DNA from: Synechococcales cyanobacterium VAR_4_metabat_354
GTDB taxonomy: Bacteria > Cyanobacteriota > Cyanobacteriia > Cyanobacteriales > Chamaesiphonaceae
Assembly: GCA_031414775.1 (NCBI GenBank)
Contig: JANOQI010000024.1
Coordinates: 103,656 to 167,655, forward strand
Reading direction: 5' to 3'
Length of the DNA stretch: 64,000 nt
The stretch's first letter is position 1. Each line of letters begins with the position of its first letter. Of the stretch, positions 13,228 to 23,801 are shown piece after piece. Under the pieces are notes generated by a model. The model was not told where the DNA came from. It searched no databases and saw only the letters and a program-made list of their open reading frames with translations. The position numbers and the translations under genes are program-made.

Positions 13228-15060
13228 TTAAATTAGTAAGGCCATCATGAGACTAATAATTATGACTCCCGAGAAAATTGACAGTATATAAAACTGAGAT
13301 TGACCAGAATTATTGTATTTAAGAGTTTGTCCACTTACTAAAGTCCCAATCCCAACCAAATTAACCAATCCATCGACAATATACTTGTCGAACCAATTAA
13401 TTACTCGGGCACTAGTAGCTACCAACCAGACAATAGTTAACTGATAAAGACGCTGCACGTAAAAATCATTGGCGAAGAACGCTTGCACAGCTGGCACTGG
13501 TAGTTTAATCGGTTTCGGGATAGCATCAACTCCGTAGATTAGACCGCTAGTAGTAACACCAATGATGCTTGACCAAACTAATAAAGGAGCTAAATACATA
13601 TTTGATTCTTCCCCACTGGGTAATGCTCCCAAGTTTCGTAAAATAATTGGCATATGGCAGACAAAAATAGCAGTAGAAATTACTGGTAGACTGATTAACC
13701 AAAATGGTTCTGTCGATCGCTGGGTCATCGGCTGTGCTTGACCCAAAAATATCAGACAAAATAATCGAGTTAAACTAAATGCTGTTAGGGCATTCACTAT
13801 TGAAATTACACCCACCAACCAAGGTTGCTCTACCCATAGGCTCTCAATGAGAGGGAGAAAAAACCAGAATCCACCTAAAGGAGGCATTGCGATAAAGGAG
13901 CCGATTGCCACTAACATTGATAAGGCGGTGAGTGGGCGACGCGACCATAAGCCACCTAATTGAGTCAAATCTTGGGTAACATTGGTAAAAATAATTGAAC
14001 CCACACTCATATATAGCAATGCCATGCCGAAGGATTCATTGAAAAGAATAAATCGAGCAGCATCCAAATTCTGGGTGCCGACAGCGATAAAGACTAAGCC
14101 AATGGAAGCGCTGAGAGCATAGGATACAACCCGTTTCATATCCACTTGGGCGATCGCTATTAATGAACAACAAATCGCTGTACTAGCTCCTAGAATTACT
14201 AGCGTATTTAATAATACTGGCGACAAAGAAATTACTGGTGCTAATTTAATTAATACAAAAGCCCCTGCTCCCACCACTACTGCATTCCGTAATACAGTTG
14301 CTGGGATGGGTGCTTCCATCGCTTCGTCTAACCATAATTGGAAGGGAATTTGGGCACATTTACCCAATGGTCCAGCAATCAGAGATAAACCTAACAATGT
14401 TGCTACTGTCGGGTCTAATCTCGCTGTTTCTGCCCAAGTAGATAACTCGGTGAAATTCCAGGTGCCGGTGATTGGATAGATCGCAATCACGCCCATGAGC
14501 AAAATGATGTCGCCAACTCGCTTTGTCCAAAAGGCATCGCGCGCTCCAGTAATAACTAAAGGTTGGACAAACCAAAAGCCGACTAGCAGATAGGTGGCAA
14601 GGGTAAGCAGTTCTAGAAAGACGTAACTGAAAAAGAGGGAATTGGAGAGCATTAAACCGCAAATCCCGGCACCGAAACAATTCATTAAGGAGAAGAACCT
14701 CGCCCAGCCCCAATCCGTTTCTAGGTAACCTACTGCATAAATCTGGGCGATAAAATTGATGCCCGTAACTACGGCGGTGGCTGTTAACGTGACCGTCGAG
14801 ATCTCGATCGGGAAGTCAATATCTAGAGTACTAGTATGCAGCCAACCATAGCTAATTTCTTGGGCGGGTAAATTCCAACCAGTCACTAAGGCAACAAGGC
14901 CATGCAGGAAAGCAATCCCGGCCATCAAGATATTGATATAACCGGCTGGCCTTGGCCCTAGTTGCCCTGACCAACCGAGAGACCAAGGGCTGGCCAAGAT
15001 CACTCCGATGATGGGGTAGCAGGGAATTAACCACACATTTTGGAAAATGGTTTGATACAT
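13228..15060 (-). CDS. ndhF3: NDH-1 subunit 5, CO2-uptake type (divergent)
   Basis: GPRPAGYIN, GARDAFWTKRVGD and LWLDEAME motifs; heads the cupA operon. Confidence 0.85.
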   Translation of the reverse strand: MYQTIFQNVWLIPCYPIIGVILASPWSLGWSGQLGPRPAGYINILMAGIAFLHGLVALVTGWNLPAQEISYGWLHTSTLDIDFPIEISTVTLTATAVVTGINFIAQIYAVGYLETDWGWARFFSLMNCFGAGICGLMLSNSLFFSYVFLELLTLATYLLVGFWFVQPLVITGARDAFWTKRVGDIILLMGVIAIYPITGTWNFTELSTWAETARLDPTVATLLGLSLIAGPLGKCAQIPFQLWLDEAMEAPIPATVLRNAVVVGAGAFVLIKLAPVISLSPVLLNTLVILGASTAICCSLIAIAQVDMKRVVSYALSASIGLVFIAVGTQNLDAARFILFNESFGMALLYMSVGSIIFTNVTQDLTQLGGLWSRRPLTALSMLVAIGSFIAMPPLGGFWFFLPLIESLWVEQPWLVGVISIVNALTAFSLTRLFCLIFLGQAQPMTQRSTEPFWLISLPVISTAIFVCHMPIILRNLGALPSGEESNMYLAPLLVWSSIIGVTTSGLIYGVDAIPKPIKLPVPAVQAFFANDFYVQRLYQLTIVWLVATSARVINWFDKYIVDGLVNLVGIGTLVSGQTLKYNNSGQSQFYILSIFSGVIIISLMMALLI

Positions 15061-15237
15061 AGGCTAAAATCTATGAATTAATAATTTAAGTTAGCTTTAA
15101 CTCTATAAAAAAGAATAATCGAAAACCTCTGAAAAAGATAGATCGAACATAGAGTTTTACATGATGTTTTCTCTAAATTTTTCTTATGAATACTATGAAT
15201 AATAAATAACCTATTTTGAACTTAGATTTTAATCTAT
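15058..15237 (-). promoter_or_regulatory. Array of NdhR/CcmR-type LysR boxes upstream of ndhF3
   Basis: CATAG-N8-CTATG at 15058-15075, TTAG-N8-CTAT at 15091-15106 and 15222-15237, ATAA-N8-CTAT at 15199-15214. Confidence 0.7.
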
Positions 15238-15268
15238 GTATTAGTACAAACAAAGTGATCGCTAGAAT

Positions 15269-15306
15269 ATCAGTCCAAACAAAAACTAATTTTTGTTTGG
15301 ACTGAT
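15269..15306 (-). terminator. Hairpin/terminator downstream of moaA
   Basis: Perfect 17-bp stem atcagtccaaacaaaaa / tttttgtttggactgat with a 4-nt loop. Confidence 0.7.
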
Positions 15307-15329
15307 TAAGATTTTATTGAGCACAATTA

Positions 15330-16319
15330 TTACCCGCCGATTTGAGACATGGTGCGACTATATTGACCAGTTGAATTTCCCGATTCTCGCTCCTTAAAAT
15401 TAATTTCTTCCTTCAATACTAATAATTCCAGCACGCGTGATCGCAATTCCTGCACACTCACCCCTGCCCGCAATGCTGCTTTCAGATCGATTTGACCAGC
15501 TTCATTCAGTAAACAAGGCCGCAGCCAACCATCCGCCGACAACCGTACCCGATTACATCGATCACAAAAACACTCCGACATCTGACTGATAAAACCCAAG
15601 GTGCCCTTAGCTCCCGGAATTTGGAAAACATCGGCTGGACCATTGCCCCGCACCTGTGATTCTATCAGTCCCCATTTATCTCGAATTTGCTGCCGAATTG
15701 ATTCTGAATCAATCCAACCTCGATCGAGAAACAGCGCATCATTACCGATCGGCATAAATTCAATAAACCGAATGTGCCAATTCCGATCGATCGACAGCTC
15801 CGCCAATTCCAGCACCTCGCCATCATTAACTCCTGGAATAACCACCACATTTAGCTTCAGCGGATCGAAACCCACTTGATGGGCAGCTTGGATTCCTTGC
15901 CAAACTCGTTGCCAGGTTTCAGTACTAGACCTGCCCACAATTTTGGCAAAAGTGGCCGGATTGAGTGAATCGAGGCTGATATTAATGCGGCGCAATCCAG
16001 CCTGATATAAATCTGCGGCTAAATCAGCCAGTAGCCAAGCATTAGTAGTCATTGCCAAATCCTCAGTTTGCGGCAAACTACTAATAGCTTCAATCAGATT
16101 TACTATTCCGGGACGGATCAGCGGCTCGCCACCAGTCAGTCGAAACCGAGTAAATCCGACAGGAATAAAGACATCTCTTACCAATGTCACAATCTCATCA
16201 TTGGTTAACAACTCTGGCTGGGGCTGATAATGGATATCACTGCCCACTGGCATACAATACTGACAGCGAAAATTACAGCGATCGGTCAGACTGATACGAA
16301 GGTAATCTACCTGATTCAT
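15330..16319 (-). CDS. moaA: GTP 3',8-cyclase (molybdopterin biosynthesis)
   Basis: CNFRCQYC radical-SAM motif, [11 protein letters not shown]-terminal MSQIGG. Confidence 0.95.
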
Positions 16320-19498: not shown

Positions 19499-20476
19499 TT
19501 AACTTCTTTCTAGATTAAGCTGGACTGCGAGTTCAAATAACCGATCAATTCTGAAAACTGCTGAATTCAATCCAATTTCATCTAAATACTCATCGATAGG
19601 CACAGATTTTTTTGCATAGCGACCATCTTCAGTACATCGGGTAATTTCTTGGAGCTCTAAAAAATTTGGATCTGTACCTATCAACATTCGACCAATACCA
19701 GAGGTTCTATTAGACTGGAGAAATATTTGGGGTAGTGGCAGCCATAAGTAACAGCTGAGAAAGTTGTGATCAGTAATGCGATGAAATCTTAAATGGCAAC
19801 AAGGCTTCGTTTTTCCCCGCCCATAAAAGATGCCGTTACTAACTTTGATTTCTTTGATGCGGTGACTAGAAGACAGCATCTTTTCCCTAAGACGCAGAGT
19901 TTCTCTCTTTTCAATTAGGGGTAATTTATTTAGAAAATTCACTAGTATTTTTGGTGGTGGAGCGACTTGAGTTTCTCTTTCACTATTGGTTACAATCGAG
20001 TCAGCTTCGATAAATGGAATTGGTTCTGTGGCATTTATTTCCTGGCGATCACTGAGATGAAATCTCAAATAAAATTTTTTTGATTTTTCAAAAACTGAAA
20101 ATCGAATAAACTCAAATTCTAATTTGTTATAGTGTCGATCGACGAAATTGTGTCTATGAAAATCTGGAGCGATCACTATCAATTTAATTGGCAAGTTGTA
20201 ATTGATCGAGTCTTTAAATGGCTGTTCTAAAGCAAGGCTATGATAATAGCGAGTGAGCTGATGAATAACATAACGGTCTTCACAATTTTTTAGCTCTAAT
20301 ACAACTAATTGATTGTTTTTAGTTTTAGCCAAAATATCGCAATAATCACCTTTGATTGCGAATTGACGATTGAGAGGAGTTAAATCTAAATTATTCTCTA
20401 AATTATCCCAGATAAAATCTTCTAGAAATCTTTCTTCTGCAAACATCCAGCCTTTATCAGATTTTCTCAGCACCAT
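19499..20476 (-). CDS. NucS/DUF91-like PD-(D/E)xK endonuclease domain protein
   Basis: E..LEDFI, CDILA, VLELKN and QLTRYY motifs; AT-rich. Confidence 0.7.
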   Translation of the reverse strand: MVLRKSDKGWMFAEERFLEDFIWDNLENNLDLTPLNRQFAIKGDYCDILAKTKNNQLVVLELKNCEDRYVIHQLTRYYHSLALEQPFKDSINYNLPIKLIVIAPDFHRHNFVDRHYNKLEFEFIRFSVFEKSKKFYLRFHLSDRQEINATEPIPFIEADSIVTNSERETQVAPPPKILVNFLNKLPLIEKRETLRLREKMLSSSHRIKEIKVSNGIFYGRGKTKPCCHLRFHRITDHNFLSCYLWLPLPQIFLQSNRTSGIGRMLIGTDPNFLELQEITRCTEDGRYAKKSVPIDEYLDEIGLNSAVFRIDRLFELAVQLNLERS

Positions 20477-20478
20477 CT

Positions 20479-21222
20479 CTAATCATCTGTTGATATATTA
20501 TTTTCTATAAGTTCCATCTTTCTAATGATGGGATCAAAATCATCACTAAATTTTGTTTGATGATTATAATAAGAATATTCAAGGCTTACTGTAGTAGGAG
20601 TCGGGAATTCTATATTCTGTAAATTAGCATCAGAAAAGTCAGCACCTTCTGCATGAAAATGTGCAAAAGATGATTTTTGAAAATCAGCTCCGCGAAAATC
20701 AACATAAGAAAATTGACCAGATATATAAATTGATCTCAGATCGGCTCCAGTAAAGTTTGATGCTGTAAAGTCAGCTCCAGAAAAATTACTAAATTTTGCT
20801 TTTTCAGTAAGATCACTAAATTTTACACATATAAAATCAGAACCTCGACAAGAAGACTCTGACAATTTTATTCTTCTTAAGTCTGAATTCTTGAAATTAC
20901 ATTGATCGAGCCTACAACGAGATAAATTAGCTCCTTGTAAATTGCATTCACTAAAATCAGTACCAGCTAAATCTACTTTAATTGACCGACTTGACCGACC
21001 AAAACTAACTGCTTTGAGGTTGGAACCCCGCAAAATAATGTTTTTAAGGTCAAGAAACAGTATTTCAGAATCAATAATATCTACTGTTGCCCCGCGTAAG
21101 TCAGAGCCGGAAAAATTCCGATGTCCCTCAGAATAGAGTTTAAGGAGAGCTTCAAGTGTTCTGACTGGCTTGGCTACTTGCTCGCCTGGATCAGAAATAT
21201 TAGGCGGGTTTTCTGCGGTCAT
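20479..21222 (-). CDS. Pentapeptide repeat protein
   Basis: Repeated A(D/N)(L/F)xx units; AT-rich. Confidence 0.85.
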   Translation of the reverse strand: MTAENPPNISDPGEQVAKPVRTLEALLKLYSEGHRNFSGSDLRGATVDIIDSEILFLDLKNIILRGSNLKAVSFGRSSRSIKVDLAGTDFSECNLQGANLSRCRLDQCNFKNSDLRRIKLSESSCRGSDFICVKFSDLTEKAKFSNFSGADFTASNFTGADLRSIYISGQFSYVDFRGADFQKSSFAHFHAEGADFSDANLQNIEFPTPTTVSLEYSYYNHQTKFSDDFDPIIRKMELIENNISTDD

Positions 21223-21329
21223 TAGCTTTGATGTGAATCAAAAATCATAGGTAATTCATCTATATTCTAGAGTACCCAGATACGATCGATTTACTACACT
21301 TTTTAAATGATCGACGTAATCAAATAAAA

Positions 21330-21470
21330 CTAATCCCAATCATCCACCGGTTCTTTTTCCCAATCACTCTTCGGTAAATATTGAGGCAATTTCAACTTAG
21401 GAAAACGATAAAAAGTATCACCATCATCATCCACCTCTGGCACCGCATCCAACACCCGCACCTGTCGATC
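21330..21470 (-). pseudogene. Displaced duplicate of the 3' end (46 codons plus stop) of gene 22135..22482
   Basis: Direct repeat of 22135-22275; 13 mismatches counted by eye, identical peptide, no start codon. Confidence 0.9.
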
Positions 21471-21547
21471 GAAATCATCTAAAATTGATAGTGACCGCTA
21501 AAAAGCTGAGATAATCAGGAATAGTCCCTAATGTTTGCTCGAAATCA

Positions 21548-21892
21548 ATGGCCAAATTATCTACCGAAACTCTAGTAATGATTTTCTCTTTACTGCGCCA
21601 ATTGGCAGAAGAAATAGAAGAAGCTTGTGCCATAGAATGGATATTTTTTGAGAGGTATGGAGAAACATCCAGAACGATCAGCGAATTAGAAGAATTACAA
21701 AATGCTAGAGAAAGACTCAATCAATCCTATGTTCGACTCAATACCTTACTACTGAAAATCCTGGAAGCACAGCCAACTGCTGCGAATGTTATGCTAGATT
21801 TGCTGGCTAAGGCGATCAATAGTGGGCAAGCGAATTTAGAAGCTGCCAATGCCAGTATTCAAGAGATTAGAAGAGGTTGGAATTTGTCATGA
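21548..21892 (+). CDS. Hypothetical alpha-helical protein
   Basis: 114-aa ORF, coupled to the next ORF by an ATGA overlap. Confidence 0.7.
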   Translation: MAKLSTETLVMIFSLLRQLAEEIEEACAIEWIFFERYGETSRTISELEELQNARERLNQSYVRLNTLLLKILEAQPTAANVMLDLLAKAINSGQANLEAANASIQEIRRGWNLS

Positions 21893-22077
21893 TCGATCAA
21901 CACCCCTATCCTGATGCCGAAACCAAAAAAAATTGTCTTGATCGCCTACGAGAAAGTAATCGCCAATTAGAGCTATATAACTTGTTCTTAGATGATGCGA
22001 TTGCTCAAGTGGACGCCGAACTGCGTCAACACAGACGTTCAAGATTATTGCAGAAGGTAAAACCTACTGAATTTTGA
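21889..22077 (+). CDS. Small hypothetical protein
   Basis: ATG overlaps the upstream TGA; GAGG upstream. Confidence 0.6.
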   Translation: MIDQHPYPDAETKKNCLDRLRESNRQLELYNLFLDDAIAQVDAELRQHRRSRLLQKVKPTEF

Positions 22078-22134
22078 TAGCTCTACTTGCACCAGAGGCG
22101 ATCGATAGGTAAATACAATAATTGATCGAGCTAA

Positions 22135-22482
22135 TTAATCCCAATCATCAACTGGCTCCTTTTCCCAATCACTCTTAGGTAAATATTGGGGCAACTTTAA
22201 TTTAGGAAAACGATAAAAAGTATCACCGTCATCATCCACTTCTGGCACCGCATCCAACACTCGCACCTGTCGATCAAGATATTCCTTAGCAATCTCTGCA
22301 TCAACCTGCGCCGATGCCCCCAACTCAATCAGCGAAATCGTACTATCATGCGACTGTAAAATTCGATAAAAAGCCTGATCTAACTGCTTTTGCTGACTTT
22401 GTTCGCGCAGCATTCGCGAGACATACACCGTCGCCCCACCACCCAGACCTAAAACCAACAGCAGTTGTATCAAAAATGCCAT
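22135..22482 (-). CDS. Membrane-anchored hypothetical protein (possible winged-helix C-terminus)
   Basis: N-terminal TM segment; synonymous-only divergence from its duplicate indicates real coding constraint. Confidence 0.8.
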   Translation of the reverse strand: MAFLIQLLLVLGLGGGATVYVSRMLREQSQQKQLDQAFYRILQSHDSTISLIELGASAQVDAEIAKEYLDRQVRVLDAVPEVDDDGDTFYRFPKLKLPQYLPKSDWEKEPVDDWD

Positions 22483-22556
22483 GACGAGAACTTCCTTGCT
22501 TGCATGAAATCTGTAATTTCCTCTCTTCGATACAGAAGAGAGGAATCGGAATCGAT

Positions 22557-23654
22557 CTACCCCGGCTTAACCAAATTCTCCAAGCCCTGAGTTACCTTAG
22601 CCGAAATCACGCTGTCATCAGCCGTCATTTTGTCCAAGACATCCTGGCCTTCTACCACATAACCAAACACTGCATAGCGGCCATCTAGCAAATTGCGGCC
22701 AGCAGGTGTTAGTTCTGGCTCAAACAAGAAGAAAAAGAACTGGGAAGAAGCTCCATCTGGCTCGGTTTCTGGTCTGGCCATTGCCAAGGTACCAAAAGAA
22801 GCAAAAGGCAAGACCGGCTCATCATTGTAGCGACCGGCATCTTCGAGGGTAATGCCATAGGTCGGTTTGGGGTCGCCTTTTGCCAAAACTTCTAAGGGGA
22901 TGGCTCGGTATTTCTTAGTTTTAGGATCAATAAAACCTACTTCTTTCCCTGGCGGATCACCAACCTGCAACACATAGGAATCTTCAGCACGGGTAAAAGG
23001 CAGTTTGGTATAAAAGCCCCGCTGCACCAAGTCCACGAAATTGCCCGCTGTAACTGGCGCACTGTAGCCGTCTACTACTATTTTGACATCACCTTTGCTG
23101 GTGGTCATGGCGATTGTTGCCCGTCCTTTCAGTTGGGGCAGATTTTTGTATTCAGCTGGTACTTCATAGGGGAAGCCCTCGATCATTAATTCTTCTAGGT
23201 TACCAATTTGATCTAATACTGCTGCTTTTTTAGCTTGAATCTGTGACCTGTCTTGGGCATCAGCAGCGGCTGTCATATCTGTGATGCTAGCGGCAATCTC
23301 ACTGAGCAGGGTGGTTGCTGCCGCCTGATTCTTTTCTGGAACTGTTTTTAAAATATTGGCACTGCGGCTTTGTAATACCGAGCTAGCTTGTTTTATGTTA
23401 CTACTGATTTTTTGCCAGCGCTTGCTGCGCAGCTGATTCGAGATATCTTCTAAGCTGGTCTGCACTTTGCGGATATCGGGGCTGTCGATCGGCAAGGCAT
23501 AACGCAAAATTGCCCGACCATCGGTAATCGCATTGCCCGCAGGCAATAAACTCGCGCTTAAACTAACAGATAAAAAAGCGCAAAGACTAAGCGTCAAGAC
23601 TGTCCGCAAGCCGCGCTGGAGGTAGTTAGTAATAAAAGTTTTGATAAAACTCAT
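22557..23654 (-). CDS. Cyclophilin-type PPIase, CYP38/TLP40-like
   Basis: LPAGNAITDGRAILRYALP, DGYSAPVTAGNF and LDGRYAVFGYV motifs. Confidence 0.88.
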   Translation of the reverse strand: MSFIKTFITNYLQRGLRTVLTLSLCAFLSVSLSASLLPAGNAITDGRAILRYALPIDSPDIRKVQTSLEDISNQLRSKRWQKISSNIKQASSVLQSRSANILKTVPEKNQAAATTLLSEIAASITDMTAAADAQDRSQIQAKKAAVLDQIGNLEELMIEGFPYEVPAEYKNLPQLKGRATIAMTTSKGDVKIVVDGYSAPVTAGNFVDLVQRGFYTKLPFTRAEDSYVLQVGDPPGKEVGFIDPKTKKYRAIPLEVLAKGDPKPTYGITLEDAGRYNDEPVLPFASFGTLAMARPETEPDGASSQFFFFLFEPELTPAGRNLLDGRYAVFGYVVEGQDVLDKMTADDSVISAKVTQGLENLVKPG

Positions 23655-23801
23655 AGGATAAATGTCGCTGAAGGCTAGGCAAGAGCGGCCACTGCCAAAT
23701 CTCTGCCTTCTTAATCTTGCCATAGTCCGGCTGGTTAATTGACTGAGAACTTCCCACAGCCTGATAAAATTAAATGCTGACTATATTCCCACAACAAACT
23801 C

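Follow-up and report, generated by a model that had tools for sequence, protein, structure and literature searches.

A gene tail duplicated around a small cassette marks a real, recent and integrase-free insertion, and we put the probability that it is a recombination scar between functional alleles of different lineages at about 0.9. The scar lies in a 64,000-nucleotide stretch of cyanobacterial DNA, the whole of which is called the window here. Both copies of the tail (21330-21470 and 22135-22275) are on the minus strand, 141 bp long and 805 bp apart, and they encode an identical run of 46 residues followed by a stop, DRQV...VDDWD*. One copy ends an intact host gene, which was detected in 38 of the 39 family genomes, with two matches each in G000 (the focal genome), G007, G047 and G012. 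The other copy, the orphan, is preceded 10 codons upstream by an in-frame stop, and its fourth codon is a GTG that could start a short peptide. All 13 differences between the intact and orphan tails fall at codon position 3 and none changes a residue, so that the coordinates, the peptide and the third-position count given in an earlier note on this DNA proved correct on recount. That note had counted the TAG/TAA stop difference among purely synonymous changes; the tally holds, but the stop difference is probably a 4-bp slip, as judged from the alignment, leaving 12 substitutions plus the slip and no thirteenth substitution: TAAT is present twice at 22132-22139 in the intact gene, a 4-bp tandem duplication relative to G007. 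Random changes in these codons would be synonymous in only ~20-27% of cases, and 12 of 12 synonymous changes under neutral decay has p = 4e-9 to 2e-7, which excludes neutral decay of one tail copy.

The repeat begins at a perfect TCGATCGA palindrome. The earlier description of this junction as a HIP1-core site is right for the CGATCG core, but the octamer is TCGATCGA and not the canonical HIP1 GCGATCGC; likewise, the palindrome is perfect at the orphan but the intact gene of G000 lacks it and carries TCGATCAA. At the corresponding codons, the intact gene of each of G001, G003 and G007 carries the perfect palindrome TCGATCGA.

Comparison with relatives supports both the insertion and its recent date. 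An empty allele had been predicted in close relatives, and it was found in the closest one, the sister species G001 (synonymous third-position divergence about 0.17), where a single tail is followed by the pentapeptide gene, with a perfect TCGATCGA at the junction position; the alignment of G001 reaches 21475 and resumes at 22126 within one contiguous contig stretch. G003 also has an empty allele, with other genes downstream. G007 (divergence about 0.3) carries the same cassette at the same junction, and its orphan differs from its own tail at 17 sites, 8/2/7 by codon position, with 12 codons altered, a stop introduced and the palindrome lost. First and second codon positions are changed at 10 of 94 sites in the orphan of G007 and at 0 of 94 in that of G000 (p = 0.0015), bearing out the proposal that both copies evolved as functional alleles in different lineages. 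Because the G000 orphan has not undergone decay of the G007 type, it was functional until recently and was formed or refreshed at a much later time (less than about 0.03 substitutions per site); since the same junction carries orphans of different age in the two genomes, either the junction was reused or the orphan was renewed. An order-wide DNA search of 151 genomes gave a junction-crossing match only in G000 and G007, with G001 and G003 not among the matches listed, and a metagenome scan with the host protein returned 8 loci, all distant (32-50% identity), and no new close alleles.

The arrangement is supported by assembled contigs from two runs. In run X1, which is possibly the source sample, contigs 20200-21793, 21764-22236 and 22207-23400 overlap across the region with 0 differences at a depth of 176-192, none of them spanning the whole stretch, and a joint skipping the cassette, as in an empty allele, is absent from the assembled contigs of this run. 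Run X4, from the same study, matches exactly over 21840-23400, and G007 shows the same arrangement independently. The concern that the locus might be a strain-chimeric assembly is countered by this uniform tiling and by the agreement of the G007 layout. Over 21330-21491 of the window, run X12 contains a relative in which the sequence after the tail continues differently downstream; one contig lacks 4 bases at 21454, and a loose end lies at 21491. These features hint at another allele, either with a decaying orphan or with different cargo.

Features of the focal locus (positions in the window) and hosts of further tail scars in the focal genome (contig:positions)
Feature	Position	Strand	Remarks
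Host gene	22135..22482	-	115 aa; no Pfam family; intact tail = last 47 codons (22135-22275)
Orphan tail, last 47 codons	21330..21470	-	zero amino-acid changes; no gene head
TCGATCGA palindrome, cassette/orphan junction	21465..21472	.	repeat begins here
Intact-gene counterpart of junction site	22270..22277	.	TCGATCAA on + strand, one base off TCGATCGA
Cargo gene 1	21548..21892	+	114 aa; multicopy cyanobacterial hypothetical protein; frameshifted in G007
Cargo gene 2	21889..22077	+	62 aa; 4-base overlap with cargo gene 1
Spacer, cargo to intact stop	22078..22134	.	TAAT duplication 22132-22139 supplies TAA stop
Second allele breakpoint	21283..21290	.	G001 similarity stops at CGATCGAT
Variable block beside scar	19499..21222	-	pentapeptide-repeat gene and NucS-like gene; common to G000 and G001
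CYP38-like cyclophilin, upstream flank	22557..23723	-	conserved
Further scar host	C9:47795-49612		G000
Further scar host	C10:27219-31808		G000; glutamate synthase
Further scar host	C13:13759-14088		G000
Further scar host	C20:14002-15483		G000
Further scar host	C27:6893-7510		G000
Further scar host	C36:73501-74091		G000; two orphans
Further scar host	C54:76412-77368		G000
Further scar host	C54:36363-36740		G000
Further scar host	C56:51116-52513		G000
Further scar host	C62:209260-210381		G000

Origin of the two tails

Foreign DNA had been proposed to bring in a new gene end and push the old one downstream. The orphan of G000 differs at 6 sites from the functional tail of G007, at 11 from that of G001 and at 13 from its own intact tail. 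The tree of the two copies that had been suggested gives no supported polarity: in the best tree of the tails, the partner of the intact tail is G001 (support 42/36) and that of the orphan is G007 (61/78), and none of the alternatives was rejected (AU p 0.075-0.31; p-AU 0.31 for the two G000 copies as a clade). Differences from G007 number 10/207 in the gene head, 6/141 in the orphan and 15/141 in the intact tail, making the intact tail the outlier (p = 0.055), and a more diverged tract runs without a break from the intact tail through the spacer into the 3' half of cargo gene 2. This congruence of head and orphan leans towards the proposed polarity (p 0.055), while the unsupported tree leans the opposite way and one of the further scars, C20, is reversed.

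At scar C20, 16 of the first 17 diagnostic sites of the empty G001 allele agree with the intact copy, and the last 3 diagnostic sites and the downstream sequence agree with the orphan; at scar C56, the empty G003 allele agrees with the orphan at 23 of 31 diagnostic sites. On these site patterns, the orphan would be the resident copy at C56, and the opposite would hold at C20, where the match changes over in the last codons. At scar C13, both relatives have a perfect TCGATCGA where the intact gene of G000 has TCGATCAA.

The insert between the copies consists of two genes in 664 bp. Compared with G007, 31 of 447 bases differ at 21548-21995 and 30 of 131 at 21996-22134 (p = 1e-6); cargo gene 2 from about 21996, its 3' half, is much more diverged than the remaining cassette, and this mosaic implies that more than one event was needed. 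No match bearing on cargo function was found in Pfam, NCBIfam, PADLOC or Atlas, and the names given to homologs are inconsistent among sources. A promoter and terminator scan gave no signal above shuffled sequence. A paralog of cargo gene 1, 39% identical, lies in the focal genome just 3' of a second glutamate-synthase-like gene (C16:303200-303541).

Homologs of the cassette elsewhere align over both genes and at most about 45 bases upstream. Tail scars were found at 0 of 45 cassette-homolog loci and at 0 of 35 host-gene loci of other genomes. A cassette that is self-mobile, HIP-delimited or an IS was considered and rejected, as there are no conserved ends elsewhere and none of the 45 homolog loci is scarred. 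A search for carriage on plasmids returned only two Planktothrix plasmids, at 41% identity. At six loci of genus g2 (L086, L088, L090, L092, L095 and L096), close cassette homologs lie directly upstream of the start of a conserved gene, putatively that of DNA polymerase I; the homolog loci L090 and L099 are broken by a 22-25 base insert ending in GGAGAATCG.

The 39 bases from the CGATCGAT breakpoint to the orphan stop are wholly different from G001. The variable block is replaced in G007, whose similarity stops at 19549, 3 bases past CGATC, and all three breakpoints examined at this hotspot (including 21290 and 19549) lie at CGATC or at most 3 bases away. On the other side, the synonymous divergence of the cyclophilin gene from the sister G001 is 0.28, against 0.10-0.21 for the remaining flanking genes. 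The NucS-like nuclease gene of the variable block (19499-20476) matches Pfam PF01939 barely above the cut-off and is missing at this site in G007.

Routes by which the insert could have been made

The scar type has precedent, and three routes, namely a circle, a linear molecule and a double crossover, yield overlapping products. We give even odds to an insert made by a single homologous crossover of a small DNA circle that carried a related lineage's tail plus cargo and was closed at TCGATCGA, with no integrase. The donor DNA would come from another lineage, probably via natural transformation, and the circle would close by joining the far end of the cargo to a point inside the gene; alternatively, circles may arise by excision between the repeats of an older scar. 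The CGATCG core may promote this joining, either by being the most frequent microhomology or by being cut or nicked. The position of the crossover would set which copy is foreign, making either polarity possible, and the palindrome would be unnecessary in the recipient's intact copy. A circle excised from an old scar and integrated again at another place could also renew an orphan.

Against the empty allele of G001, the locus has a direct repeat on both sides, one novel junction and an intact target gene, and a direct repeat with one novel junction and no loss of the host gene is the product of single-crossover integration; the 39-base spacer after the orphan differs. A reciprocal mosaic of donor and recipient across the two copies is present at scar C20, where the split is what a distal crossover predicts; at the focal locus, tree and distances lean opposite ways. 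The joint of such a circle is not among the joints listed for the assembled contigs. All 12 genus genomes carry ComEC (gene presence only), and G000 has five C5-methyltransferase genes (dcm-family). Recombinase-free excision between short repeats has been described (PMC5426353). In Escherichia coli, cut donor DNA at lacZ is reported to have given a duplication in 56 of 60 clones (109-950 bp, 14 sequenced), ascribed to re-circularisation, the other 4 being deletion-type (PMC3240628). That case resembles ours in that part of a gene, at one end, is directly repeated on the two sides of foreign DNA, with one novel junction, no integrase and a similar repeat size (37-148 bp here). It differs in being a laboratory plasmid construct, as opposed to natural chromosomal cargo that passes between species, lies at many host genes and has junctions enriched at a palindrome core.

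Linear one-sided capture by homology-facilitated illegitimate recombination is an unlikely alternative. Here the incoming DNA would pair via the cyclophilin or host gene and its far end would join at TCGATCGA microhomology, leaving the orphan as the resident tail. The TCGATCGA at the junction is also present at the ancestral site. The route is reported to use 3-10 bp of microhomology (PMC3240628), and head and orphan are equally near G007, with the intact tail as the outlier (p 0.055) continuous with the diverged tract; the C56 scar, with its 23/31 agreement between orphan and empty allele, fits as well. The route was proposed for orphan arrays in Vibrio (PMC5361080), and in the displacement of T6SS/Rhs C-termini, as here, a new module arrives behind a conserved anchor and the old sequence is displaced downstream without an integrase (PMC3240628, PMC5361080). 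Yet recipient DNA is generally deleted in this route as described (PMC3240628), whereas here the tail is duplicated, and for this reason we do not retain the earlier view of a linear one-sided event as the best fit. The polarity of scar C20 is opposite, three scars begin at G|ATC with no shared upstream bases, and the best tail tree, though unsupported, puts the orphan with G007. The Vibrio systems also concern polymorphic toxins with different C-termini (PMC5361080), unlike the hosts found here, which include ordinary genes (glutamate synthase, a lipoyl synthase-like protein, an ABC transporter); C-terminal displacement of a polymorphic toxin with its immunity gene was rejected for the focal locus, where both ends encode the same 46 residues.

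It is similarly doubtful that the locus reflects double-crossover spread of an old scar, in which one ancient duplication would have been followed by the movement of filled alleles between species, the orphan serving as the second arm, a crossover near the orphan start swapping in the recipient's functional tail, and the palindrome being a historical microhomology only. The shared junction of G000 and G007 with orphans of different age, the mosaic cassette and the raised divergence in the flanking cyclophilin gene all point this way, and there are documented hotspots without mobility genes whose content turns over through recombination in the core genes that flank them (PMC5635113). Those hotspots share with our locus a variable cargo between conserved genes, mosaic flanks and the presence of a competence gene, but a double crossover in the flanks does not by itself make a tail duplicate. 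This reading also requires either that the crossover fell within a few bases of the start of a decayed orphan or that the donor's orphan was fresh, and it leaves the origin of the first duplication and the motif excess at other scars unexplained. It is compatible with the circle model as a later step.

It is highly improbable that the insert is what remains of an e14/icd-type integrative element, or a satellite of one, with the site-specific recombinase acting in trans or lost. The anatomy equals that of icd and icdC around e14, an intact gene, an insert and an orphan 3' fragment left behind after the gene end is restored, with differences mostly silent (PMC13626634), and a search for tyrosine recombinases (PF00589, the sole recombinase family searched) gave 11 matches elsewhere in the genome. 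However, none of the 11 is on the focal contig, the insert is merely 0.66 kb as opposed to the 15-kb prophage e14 with its site-specific excision (PMC13626634), the scars strike 11 unrelated host genes with no common attachment sequence besides the motif, and the 45 other loci with cargo homologs have no tail scars. The earlier statement that no integrase lies nearby stands in so far as tyrosine recombinases are concerned, and the cargo proteins fall in no family.

Least credible is a two-strain assembly chimera or an orphan preserved by translation: the genome is metagenome-derived, neither a contig nor a long read crosses both copies, and the GTG could begin a short peptide. Against it, depth is even across the contigs (176-192), which show 0 differences and no joint that bypasses the cassette; G007 is laid out in the same way, with a stop and 12 altered codons in its orphan; and there is no gene head upstream.

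Similar scars and the HIP motif at their junctions

Scars of this kind, for which a scan of genomes had been suggested, are common in the focal genome. We scanned 3138 crudely called ORFs of the 3.56-Mb assembly for tail copies within 12 kb. There were 19 downstream copies, 15 of them outside ORFs, and 12 were left after two adjacent tandem repeats and one paralog block had been removed; upstream copies numbered 8, with 4 outside ORFs, 2 of which came from that paralog block or from a repeat region. The 12 scars strike 11 unrelated genes, with no shared attachment sequence except the motif, and their repeats measure 37-148 bp, with a spacing of 805-1300 bp in 10 of the 12. Hosts include glutamate synthase, type I restriction subunits, a lipoyl-synthase-like gene, an ABC transporter and Uma2. 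In the eleven further scars the cargo consists mostly of accessory modules of 0.7-1.2 kb; the cargo families include PIN, DUF433/DUF5615, DUF6887, XisH/XisI and Darcynin (Pfam match in 7 of 10 proteins tested). Pooled tail mismatches fall at codon position 3 in 78 of 119 cases, and the third-position bias is significant at five scars. Leaving HIP aside, a dozen integrase-free scars in one 3.6-Mb genome suggest an under-counted entry route for small accessory modules behind ordinary genes.

The 3' end of the glutamate synthase gene at the C10 scar differs from G001 (L188) at 10-31 of 75 bases per bin, far over background, a pattern that suggests repeated replacement of this gene end.

Enrichment of CGATCG at the junctions of such scars had been predicted; it was seen in the focal genome and did not replicate significantly in relatives. 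TCGATCGA is the commonest HIP octamer among those tested in G000, with 1979 copies compared with 655 of GCGATCGC, while CGATCG occurs 8438 times (2368 per Mb). The octamer TCGATCGA is listed as the prevailing HIP derivative of Chamaesiphon and Geminocystis (Elhai 2015, PMC4390886), and this, together with the names of homologs, suggests that the focal organism is related to Chamaesiphon. In G000, CGATC or GATCG lies at the junction of 6 of 12 scars when one start is gap-adjusted and of 5 of 12 unadjusted, against 6.8%, or 0.8, expected (p = 6e-5 and 8e-4, respectively; p = 0.002 under a per-gene null), the motif window for these scars having been picked after data inspection. At six of the 12, gltB included, the motif is absent from the junction. 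Four of the 12 scars have the junction exactly at |GATC or G|ATC, against 1.1% expected, and in three the repeat begins at G|ATC without sharing any bases upstream of it. Under a null of shared 8-10-mers, motif abundance alone predicts 11-16%, and at 16% the p value is 0.007-0.03 with the focal scar and 0.086 without it, unadjusted.

In a replication with the rule fixed in advance, 100 stretches (1.99 Mb) of G017, G014, G007 and G003 were scanned, G003 having been added later under the same rules. The motif was found in 2 of 19 rows and 2 of 10 loci, or 2 of 7 loci after a CRISPR array, an N-gap artefact and a simple repeat were dropped, with 4 of the 7 being doubtful class members that were retained. 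Compared with 7-11% expected, 2 of 7 gives p of about 0.10 in a sample underpowered at 2.0 Mb, and the exact phase was seen in 0 of 2. Ordinary clean indels relative to G007 and G003 carried the motif in 1 of 16 cases, with 1.25 expected. HIP sites are described as conserved (PMC13756078, citing Xu 2018), so alignment starts can be pulled towards them.

A junction preference for the HIP core is a possible new element, strong in G000, where it was seen post hoc, and not significant in the replication. We hold only tentatively, and on balance would bet against, an activity of the core in joins beyond what its abundance explains. A more specific version seems to us somewhat less likely still: the CGATCG core would be a cut-and-join site, broken at G|ATC as in SDR5, that closes tail-plus-cargo circles which then integrate behind the matching gene of another species, and HIP-bearing gene ends would be integrase-free, self-renewing attachment sites for toxin-antitoxin pairs and other small cassettes. 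Recombination associated with HIP1 has been described at the smtB deletion, in plasmid recombination of PCC 7002 and at the SDR5 insertion, where junctions also lie at the CGATCG core (PMC4390886), and SDR5 inserts between HIP1 bases 3 and 4, the G|ATC phase of three scars here (PMC4390886). Our junctions differ in carrying the octamer TCGATCGA and in recording genes gained across species instead of deletions or fusions of plasmids. Homologous HIP1 is reported to raise integration (bioRxiv 2024.09.10.611283), and links between HIP1 and recombination are also drawn in PMC13756078, PMC5861425, PMC9239245 and PMC5101192. In the literature searched, which excluded most subscription papers, we found no paper on HIP enrichment at tail scars.

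The function of the HIP palindrome has been open for three decades, with the evidence so far consisting, according to these sources, of gains in laboratory transformation and phylogenetic correlation (bioRxiv 2024.09.10.611283; PMC13756078). Tail scars are natural junctions resolved to the base and countable over hundreds of genomes, making HIP-directed joins, and the base at which they occur, directly testable. If breakage at the HIP core is real, a long-unexplained repeat would gain a role in gene capture.

Several other observations were made in the relatives. First, two further junctions, outside the replication count, begin exactly at G|ATC: an internally deleted Uma2 copy in G007 (L238:4426-4866) and a repeat beside the C20 cargo in G003 (L200:1163-1828). 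Second, a CRISPR-like array in G007 (L182, around 14000-16000) has a repeat that begins GTCTCACCGATCATCTCGATCG and contains the CGATCG core. Lastly, an array of orphan C-termini of a large secreted adhesin-like protein is present in G007 at L237 (C3:60001-80000) and L206, and near C36:73000-81000 in G000; its ends start at a conserved GSTGAGIPT and the HIP motif is absent from it, and by analogy the array looks like Rhs-style C-terminal displacement.
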